Source: an uncultured Nitrososphaerales archaeon
Lineage (GTDB): Archaea; Thermoproteota; Nitrososphaeria; Nitrososphaerales; Gagatemarchaeaceae
Length of the DNA: 64,000 nt
Assembly: GCA_963706445.1 (NCBI GenBank)
Contig: OY970160.1
Span: forward strand, 288,001-352,000
Reading direction: 5' to 3'
Shown here: one piece after another, positions 59,772 through 61,134 of the stretch
How positions within the stretch are numbered: position 1 is the first letter of the stretch
Layout of the letters: each line of letters begins with the position of its first letter
Made by a program: the position numbers and the translations under genes
Notes under the pieces: model-generated
Told to the model about the DNA's origin: nothing
What the model saw: only the letters and a program-made list of their open reading frames with translations
Databases searched by the model: none

Positions 59772-59834
59772 ATCAGTCCGGCGACTGGGCCCTCGCGCTG
59801 TTTATAGCCCGAATGCTTTCGGGGCGACCCGTCC

Positions 59835-60344
59835 ATGTACACCAGCACAGTCGTCGACGACGAAGCTCACGCCATGAAGATCATGAGGGGGATGGAAGAC
59901 GCGTGGCAGCAGAAGGACGAGTCTTATTTCGTAAAGGTTCTCAAGTCAGAGCCAAGCCTTGTTCTGAGGGTCCACGCGGTCTGCATCCTTGCCGAAGTCG
60001 GGGGAGAGAAATCTGTCCCTGCCCTGGCCGACGTGCTCCTTCACGACCCCGACCCGCTCGTGAGACACGAGGCCGCTTTCTCCCTCGGGCAGATCGGTCT
60101 TTCAGAGGGGAACATCGCCCTCGCCGAGGCTGTGCTCAACGACAAGGACCCCATAGTGAGACATGAGTCGGCCGCAGCCCTCGGGTCAGTGGGGAGCGCA
60201 GACTCGGAGGGGGTTCTGACGAAGGCACTCTCTGACTCAGACGAAATGGTCAGGAATTCGGCCAAGGCCTCGCTCTTCAACATCAGGTTCCTGAAGCAGT
60301 ATTCTGCAGGAGCGTCGGCCCGCGACCGGGCTCCCCGCCCATAG
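59835..60344 (+). CDS. HEAT-repeat protein resembling one half of deoxyhypusine hydroxylase
   Basis: Four HEAT repeats; VRHEAAFSLGQ and VRHESAAALG. Confidence 0.85.
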   Translation: MYTSTVVDDEAHAMKIMRGMEDAWQQKDESYFVKVLKSEPSLVLRVHAVCILAEVGGEKSVPALADVLLHDPDPLVRHEAAFSLGQIGLSEGNIALAEAVLNDKDPIVRHESAAALGSVGSADSEGVLTKALSDSDEMVRNSAKASLFNIRFLKQYSAGASARDRAPRP

Positions 60345-60384: not shown

Positions 60385-61134
60385 TTGAGGCTCGACGGTA
60401 AGAGAGCGCTCGTCACCGGCTCCTCCCAAGGGATAGGGGCAGAGATCGCCAAGCTGTTCGCCAAAGAAGGGGCCACGGTATTCGTCAACCACCGCAAGGG
60501 CGATTCTCACAGGGAGCCAACCCTCGATTCGATCAGACTGGCAGGTGGAAAGGCCTTCGCGGTCCACGCCGACGTCTCCGACCCAGCCAGCGTCGATGCG
60601 ATGTTCAGGGAAATCAAGGAGAGGGTGGGGGGGCTCGACGTCCTCGTGAACACCGCGGGGTTGGCGGACAGCAGGCTGTGGGGTATCAAGCTCTCTAGCA
60701 TTACACTCGACATGTGGAAGCGGGCCTTCGCCGTGGACACCTTCGGGACCTTCCTGTGTACCCAGGGGGCAGCCAAAATAATGAAACGGGGCTCGTCCAT
60801 AGTCAACGTGGCCTCCACTCCTGCACTGGTGGGGGACACAGAAGGGCTGGTCTATGCCTCGGCCAAGGGCGCGGTGGTGTCCATGACGCGGATGCTCGCC
60901 AAGACTTTGGCCCCAAGGATCCGGGTGAACTGCATGGCCTTCGGCTCCTTCGAGACGACCTGGGTCGACTGGCTGGACAAGAAGCAGAAGGAGTCCTATC
61001 TTTCAGCAATACCGATGGGGAGGTTCGGCAAGCCCAGGGAGGCGGCCAAACTTGCGCTCTTCCTGGCGAGCGACGAATCCAGCTTCATCACAGGCCAGGT
61101 CGTCATCGCGGACGGCGGAGAGGCGCTCCGCTAG
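60385..61134 (+). CDS. Short-chain dehydrogenase/reductase (FabG-like)
   Basis: TGSSQGIG, YASAK, IRVN, FITGQ. Confidence 0.92.
   Translation: MRLDGKRALVTGSSQGIGAEIAKLFAKEGATVFVNHRKGDSHREPTLDSIRLAGGKAFAVHADVSDPASVDAMFREIKERVGGLDVLVNTAGLADSRLWGIKLSSITLDMWKRAFAVDTFGTFLCTQGAAKIMKRGSSIVNVASTPALVGDTEGLVYASAKGAVVSMTRMLAKTLAPRIRVNCMAFGSFETTWVDWLDKKQKESYLSAIPMGRFGKPREAAKLALFLASDESSFITGQVVIADGGEALR

Follow-up and report, generated by a model that had tools for sequence, protein, structure and literature searches.

P0001, a Single-Lobe DOHH-Like HEAT-Repeat Protein of Nitrososphaerales and Caldarchaeales: a Candidate Hydroxylase of aIF5A

Introduction

A small HEAT-repeat protein, here called P0001, is encoded in the genome of an uncultured soil archaeon of the Nitrososphaerales and carries two His-Glu (HE) dyads in consecutive repeats, as does each lobe of eukaryotic deoxyhypusine hydroxylase (DOHH). 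We propose, at about even confidence, that P0001 forms a homodimer, each chain supplying one lobe, and acts as a DOHH-type diiron hydroxylase of aIF5A, an activity that would be confined to Nitrososphaerales and Caldarchaeales. The dyads themselves are directly observed and conserved; the homodimer, and the two-lobe fold of a naturally fused relative, are predicted from structural models; and from these we infer iron binding, O2 chemistry and aIF5A as the substrate.

The gene for deoxyhypusine synthase (dhs) is reported in all sequenced archaea and fully hydroxylated hypusine is present in some archaea (PMC5178350, PMC6105217), yet no archaeon is known to have a DOHH orthologue (Prunetti 2016; Bassani 2018; PMC5178350, PMC6105217). 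An earlier note on this locus, made from the sequence, stated likewise that no archaeal DOHH had been assigned, and the reviews agree with it. Our literature search found no published work on archaeal DOHH-like proteins of Thaumarchaeota, Nitrososphaera, Asgard or DPANN archaea, and no published report on hypusine versus deoxyhypusine in thaumarchaeal aIF5A.

The P0001 Gene and Its Product

The window, meaning the whole stretch of 64,000 nucleotides that was analyzed, is C1:288001-352000 of a single-contig genome of 1.82 Mb. P0001 is an open ORF at 59835-60344 on the + strand, encoding 169 aa of PBS-type HEAT repeats. The motifs quoted in the earlier note (LRVHAVCILAEVGG, PLVRHEAAFSLGQIG, PIVRHESAAALGSVG and SLFNIRFLKQ) are all found in the translation, which bears out the description of a 169-aa ORF with two His-Glu dyads. 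P0001 is a real gene, since it has 764 database homologues, of which the closest 120 are 85–92% identical to it, measure 169–200 aa (mostly 169 aa) and are labeled Nitrososphaerota or Thaumarchaeota; orthologues range in length from 162 to 176 aa. A TATA-like box (TTTATA, 59801..59806, + strand), read from the sequence about 30 nt 5′ of the ATG, is probably the gene's own promoter.

Two Pfam models match P0001 above their gathering scores, HEAT_2 (2.5e-23; 82.6 bits, cut-off 27.7) and HEAT_PBS (5e-10; 39.2 bits, cut-off 20.9), and P0001 belongs to both families. Curated NCBIfam models all fall far below their cut-offs: NblB comes closest (40 bits, cut-off 300), and CpcE (17.6 bits, cut-off 330) and CpcF (14.3 bits, cut-off 220) leave P0001 outside the phycobilin lyases as NblB leaves it outside its own family. 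Many orthologues already carry the IMG/JGI name “deoxyhypusine monooxygenase”; those in NCBI and UniProt are named “HEAT repeat domain-containing protein” or “putative lyase.”

The AF2 model of the P0001 monomer (pLDDT 89.2) contains nine helices. The four HEAT repeats of the earlier description are roughly right, the model showing about four hairpins together with an additional N-terminal helix and a long last helix. The N-terminal helix (residues 10–25; 59862..59909, + strand), delimited by alignment and AF2, includes the invariant pair M20-E21; the C-terminal helix, seen in the AF2 model, spans residues 137–157 (60243..60305, + strand; VRNSAKASLFNIRFLKQ); both are part of the predicted dimer interface. 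From sequence and alignment, the repeat with dyad 1 (PLVRHEAAFSLGQIG) occupies 60054..60140 (+ strand), with H78-E79 at 60066-60071, and the repeat with dyad 2 (PIVRHESAAALGSVG) occupies 60150..60227 (+ strand), with H110-E111 at 60162-60167. The extreme C-terminus reads ...RDRAPRP in the lineage of P0001, whereas orthologues from ammonia oxidizers and Aigarchaeota share a conserved tail, ...KF[AG][KR][LK]TGG, that ends in a diglycine (loci L086–L097; e.g., L087:5992-6480 and L089:5953-6471).

Conservation and Rarity of the His-Glu Dyads

The two dyads lie in consecutive repeats at a spacing of 32 residues; a dimer would have four dyads. Among 21 family members, with identities as low as 36%, three segments are invariant (R77-H78-E79-A80-A81-F82, L84-G85-Q86 and V108-R109-H110-E111), and both dyads are kept in orthologues of Nitrosopumilaceae, Nitrosocosmicus franklandus, Nitrosocaldus, Ca. 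Caldiarchaeum subterraneum and archaeon HR01. Dyads that varied among orthologues had been named as grounds for abandoning the idea; those of P0001 do not vary in the Nitrososphaerales and Caldarchaeales orthologues.

In generic HEAT repeats the same two positions form a hypervariable pair. HE stands at the equivalent position in 4 of 1825 repeats (0.2%) from 144 generic multi-HEAT proteins, and no case of HE in two neighboring repeats was found in that sample; because of this rarity, the paired dyads of P0001 are more than chance. A further histidine, H47 (in LRVHAVC), was considered as a third ligand and rejected: other lineages have Arg or Lys at this position, which is therefore not a conserved ligand.

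Comparison with DOHH Lobes and Generic HEAT Repeats

The iron ligands of human DOHH are H56, H89, E90, H207, H240, and E241, and its substrate-binding residues are E57, E90, E208, E241, and two glycines, those of the LGQ motifs (PMC9117371). In each DOHH lobe, H78-E79 of P0001 aligns with HE dyad 1 (by motif order, human H56-E57 and H207-E208) and H110-E111 with HE dyad 2 (by motif order, H89-E90 and H240-E241). The family HMM matches every lobe of the eukaryotic, Heimdall and DPANN four-HE proteins once and in register, its alignment to DOHH lobes mostly starting near residue 30. An unguided MAFFT alignment of 66 units places all HE residues in the same four columns, and the dyads of the family share their columns with those of 54 DOHH-type lobes, so by its dyads the family belongs with them. 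Profile alignment against each DOHH half had been proposed as a check, and in every DOHH lobe tested the dyads of the family match column for column.

P0001 and DOHH (DOHH, Lia1, Nero; EC 1.14.99.29; 4d4z/4d50) have in common their PBS-type HEAT hairpins, an HE dyad in both the second and the third repeat of a four-repeat lobe (with contexts resembling VRHEAAxxLGQ and VRHExAxALG), and the substrate-binding dyad Glu residues and LGQ Gly. They differ in several respects: DOHH comprises two lobes and eight hairpins in a single chain of ~300 aa, whereas P0001 is one lobe of 169 aa and homodimerization would therefore be needed; P0001 has the additional conserved N-terminal helix; dyad spacing is 33 residues in DOHH versus 32 in P0001; and outside the dyads P0001 departs less from the generic repeat consensus than DOHH lobes do. 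PBS-lyase-type HEAT proteins (CpcE/CpcF, NblB, E. coli YibA, and the designed alphaRep proteins) share with P0001 the repeat consensus and the monomer solenoid fold, but they are without HE dyads.

Overall sequence likeness cannot separate DOHH from ordinary PBS-type HEAT repeats. When the PDB is searched with the P0001 sequence, the top matches are designed consensus alphaRep proteins, and the best natural match is human DOHH (4d4z, E 4e-19, C-terminal lobe). Per-domain scores of the family HMM reach 82 bits for generic HEAT windows, compared with 52–102 bits for DOHH lobes. When two profiles were compared, family units scored 100 bits with the DOHH-lobe profile and 93 bits with the generic PBS-HEAT profile, but with the HE residues masked these scores became 76 and 90 bits; the preference of the family for the DOHH profile comes from the four dyad residues. 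Held-out true DOHH lobes favor their own profile by 55–77 bits and generic windows favor theirs by 64 bits, and the P0001 family, whose sequence is not closer to DOHH lobes than to other HEAT families, is intermediate between the two. Closer grouping with PBS-lyase HEAT proteins, which had been put forward as counter-evidence, was half borne out: the HE-masked scores lean 14 bits toward the generic profile and the monomer fold is nearer alphaRep.

A phmmer search with whole P0001 against 1.84 billion representatives matched 43,528 HEAT proteins at E<1e-3, in an order that is uninformative because giant multi-HEAT proteins sum many repeats; the search was of value only for retrieving P0122, P0195, and the fusion protein P0132. 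With P0132 as the query, the matches that follow its own family are mainly eukaryotic DOHHs and some full-length archaeal four-HE proteins (E 1e-25 to 1e-20).

Predicted Homodimer and the Natural Fusion P0132

The fold of the monomer model matches alphaRep (Z 19) and CpcE (Z 15.5) ahead of a DOHH lobe (Z 12.8, rank 34). Prediction of the homodimer, a check suggested at the outset, gave a dimer well above controls: with two Fe, ipSAE was 0.81 in all three runs versus 0.18 for the best control, with at least 81% contact agreement among runs and a partner pLDDT of at least 86. The mark used for homodimers, reached by 20 of 30 solved homodimers and by 1 of 23 solved single chains, is only a rough calibration here. 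The predicted interface is antiparallel and two-fold, with contacts 107:107, 110:107, and 75:110 on the axis (I107, H110) and with the N-terminal helix packed against the partner's last helix; the models thus suggest that the four His of the dimer converge. Conserved residues are not enriched in the predicted interface (9 of 32 interface residues, compared with 51 of 169 overall).

P0132 is a natural head-to-tail fusion of two complete units (363 aa) that are 57% identical to each other, and in the tree of lobes it nests among Nitrosopumilaceae units. Its AF2 model (pLDDT 88.9, pTM 0.87), built from an input alignment without any DOHH sequence, resembles human DOHH 4d4z with Foldseek TM scores of 0.72/0.79, compared with at most 0.45 for every alphaRep; VIA-align superimposes 263 of 290 residues on 4d4z (Z 30.6, rmsd 3.0 Å), the next match having Z 17.7 and rmsd 14 Å. 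PBS-lyase-type HEAT proteins are continuous solenoids, unlike the two-lobe clam predicted for P0132 (TM ≤0.45, rmsd 12–15 Å). Structure predictors have seen 4d4z, so the homodimer and the P0132 fold may partly be recall. An apparent N-terminal signal peptide of P0132 was discounted: the gene call is probably too long at its 5′ end, as it is for other low-GC members of the family. P0132 is the only fused form seen; no further tandem fusion was found in 80 metagenome loci.

Gene Neighborhoods

Upstream of P0001 in the window are genes for translin-like, cytidylyltransferase-like, diphthine-synthase-like methylase and GltD-like Fe-S flavoprotein products; downstream are an SDR gene, a small ORF, an MVD-like kinase or decarboxylase gene, and a DUF371 gene. 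The downstream set is kept in 54–60 of 80 related loci because the loci are related, and no more is implied. The SDR gene (FabG-like; 60385-61134, + strand) has a TTG start 40 nt past the P0001 stop on the same strand. The pairing of the two genes is kept in 57 of the 80 related loci and is absent from ammonia oxidizers; judging from this arrangement, P0001 and the SDR may be co-transcribed in this lineage.

The window genome encodes one aIF5A, with the loop FKPGKHGSAKV, and two dhs paralogues, which lie outside the window at C1:578920-579777 and C1:377588-378472. Neither dhs nor aIF5A is linked to P0001 in this genome, the distances being 30 kb to 1.4 Mb, and dhs or IF5A was found in the flanks of none of 80 genome loci of the wider lineage of the window and none of 80 AOA-type metagenome loci. 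Two diverged dhs paralogues (~27% identity) are general in Nitrososphaerales (they occur also in genomes G001, G359, and G369), adjacent in some genomes and far apart in that of the window.

The arrangement is different in some Aigarchaeota. In archaeon HR01 (G192) and in G362, dhs1, dhs2, and the HEAT gene are contiguous, the orthologue lying <200 bp from dhs2; dhs1 lies ~5 kb from the orthologue in four Caldiarchaeum genomes; and no dhs was found within 7 kb of the orthologue in five other Aigarchaeota genomes. By a rough estimate, dhs would fall within 7 kb by chance in ~1.6% of independent arrangements. Proximity to dhs in two or three of about a dozen arrangements is suggestive and not proof of a functional link, and co-occurrence with dhs within one genome says little because dhs is reported in all sequenced archaea.

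The gene for P0132 lies in a cassette at 2857-9902 of contig L109 (Logan SRR21363124, contig SRR21363124_14; GC 40%). Genes in the same direction are dhs (Pfam DS, 337 bits), a PLP decarboxylase gene, an N-carbamoylputrescine-amidase-like gene (aguB), an agmatine-deiminase-like gene (aguA), and the fused HEAT gene. An IF5A-like_N gene stands on either side of this group (29.7 and 30.9 bits, cut-off 27.1); the products of the two have the loops LKAGKHGGPKV and AKTGKQGHIKI and bear long acidic N-terminal tails. By gene content, the cassette would bring together substrate, synthase, polyamine supply, and a putative hydroxylase. The DHS of L109 is only 31–40% identical to any Nitrososphaerales DHS, and the contig looks like a self-contained hypusination and putrescine module from an organism other than a typical thaumarchaeon. 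A GBBH/TauD dioxygenase gene adjoins the cassette.

Phyletic Distribution

A survey of 401 genomes from throughout the phylum found P0001 relatives in 62 of 64 from its own order (Nitrososphaerales), in 10 of 16 from the family that includes Caldiarchaeum and archaeon HR01 (f12), and in 2 of 16 from one further family; no relative was found in the remaining ~320 sampled genomes. Relatives occur in at least 565 species genomes overall. Sulfolobus acidocaldarius, which is reported to contain hypusine (PMC5178350, PMC6105217), gave no match to Pfam HEAT_2. Because of these absences the P0001 family cannot be a general archaeal hydroxylase. The earlier note had taken P0001 for a candidate for the archaeal aIF5A hydroxylase at large, which is too broad for a family confined to Nitrososphaerales, Caldarchaeales, and one more family.

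Full-Length Four-HE Proteins and the Origin of DOHH

Full-length four-HE proteins of 250–300 aa occur in Nanoarchaeota (DPANN; ~70 clusters, e.g., P0297 and P0281) and in Heimdallarchaeia/Kariarchaeaceae (P0509 and P0515). Like P0001 they are archaeal, have HE in the same columns, and match the family HMM in register with each lobe; they differ from it in being two-lobed single chains, and in the tree their lobes group with eukaryotic lobes and not with thaumarchaeal units. In three gene contexts examined for the DPANN and Heimdall full-length proteins, neither dhs nor IF5A was found nearby. One Heimdall four-HE gene adjoins genes of O2-dependent kynurenine type (3-HAO and an FAD monooxygenase).

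With generic windows as the outgroup, the lobe tree resolves three clans (generic, thaumarchaeal plus aigarchaeal, and full-length) that meet at one node, and it is therefore silent on the root and on whether the P0001 family lies nearer to DOHH or to generic HEAT, whether the HE columns are included or removed. The N lobes and C lobes of one lineage cluster together (support 98 for eukaryotes, 91 for DPANN, and 84 for the fusion P0132), so that those of eukaryotic DOHH join each other and not the matching DPANN or Heimdall lobes. Such clustering fits duplications that took place several times independently, or lobes that evolved in concert.

The earlier description of P0001 as the unduplicated half of DOHH is supported as far as form is concerned, by its single-lobe size, by the aligned dyads, and by a fusion that models as the two-lobe DOHH fold; that it is the ancestor of eukaryotic DOHH is not established, given the four-HE proteins of Heimdallarchaeia and Nanoarchaeota and a tree that cannot be rooted. 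A fuller scenario can be drawn, which we regard as possible though doubtful: the single-lobe protein would be a present-day survivor of the unduplicated DOHH ancestor, a symmetric homodimeric diiron aIF5A hydroxylase; tandem duplication would have given rise to the two-lobe enzyme separately in eukaryotes, in DPANN or Heimdall archaea, and in the L109 lineage; and the L109 contig would carry a portable hypusination cassette of dhs, hydroxylase, putrescine-synthesis genes, and IF5A-like substrates.

Proposed Activity and Alternative Explanations

Eukaryotic DOHH holds its diiron center between two lobes, an arrangement that the P0001 dimer would mimic with two chains. Two copies of P0001 would pair antiparallel about a two-fold axis and supply 2 x (His78, His110, Glu111), the four-His, two-Glu set of the DOHH diiron center, while Glu79, Glu111, and Gly85 would take the positions of the DOHH substrate-binding residues. 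DHS would place the deoxyhypusine chain on the Lys of the aIF5A KPGKHGSAK loop, and the P0001 dimer would then activate O2 and hydroxylate deoxyhypusine on aIF5A to hypusine. The proposed activity covers Nitrososphaerales and Caldarchaeales, not all archaea. A diiron homodimer of aIF5A-hydroxylase type, as first suggested for this gene, gains from the dyads, from the predicted dimer, and from dhs/IF5A contexts in three places, and loses from the lack of linkage between P0001 and dhs or aIF5A in the window genome.

One alternative is that P0001 has no catalytic role and serves as an ordinary scaffold or adaptor of the PBS-lyase-type HEAT kind, in which HE serves structure or protein binding and the DOHH likeness is that of a common repeat consensus. 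The searches lend themselves to such an interpretation, since the best PDB matches by sequence and by fold are consensus alphaRep proteins, HEAT proteins match in the tens of thousands (43,528 at E<1e-3), generic windows score as high as DOHH lobes, and orthologues in NCBI and UniProt are named “putative lyase” or “HEAT repeat domain-containing protein.” A scaffold does not, however, account for four normally hypervariable positions being invariant over Thaumarchaeota and Aigarchaeota when generic HE stands at 0.2%, nor for the predicted homodimer, the DOHH-like fused form, and the dhs context; the CpcE, CpcF, and NblB models reach only 14–40 bits against cut-offs of 200–330. To our knowledge, phycobiliproteins are not to be expected in these archaea. 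We consider a plain scaffold unlikely.

We put at a similarly low probability a dimeric metal-binding HEAT protein that uses its dyads on a target other than deoxyhypusine-aIF5A, whether it hydroxylates some different amine or protein or senses or carries O2 or iron; its dyads could have arisen on a PBS-type scaffold independently of DOHH. Dyads conserved in a family nearly universal in Nitrososphaerales are what such a metalloprotein would also show, and it agrees with the lack of a dhs/aIF5A link in the window genome and in 160 thaumarchaeal loci, as well as with a sequence that, outside the dyads, resembles generic PBS-HEAT more than DOHH. Two gene contexts point instead to hypusination: the fused member sits in the L109 cassette with dhs, IF5A-like, and putrescine-synthesis genes, and an orthologue abuts dhs in Aigarchaeota. 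The family also retains every residue with which human DOHH binds the deoxyhypusine chain, namely the Glu of the dyads and the Gly of LGQ.

Significance

A conserved single-lobe protein with the metal ligands of DOHH in cultured ammonia oxidizers (Nitrosocosmicus, Nitrosocaldus, and Nitrosopumilaceae) and in Caldiarchaeum makes the archaeal DOHH gap testable in those organisms; hypusine in Sulfolobus is left unexplained by the P0001 family. The origin of DOHH from non-enzymatic HEAT proteins has been discussed as an example (PMC9040561), and the P0001 family bears on that rise. If the proposed activity is correct, P0001 would be a rare natural case of an oxygenase active site at the homodimer interface of a repeat scaffold. 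If the single-lobe protein is indeed the living form of the unduplicated ancestor, hypusine hydroxylation would predate eukaryotes and would have been present in aerobic archaea.
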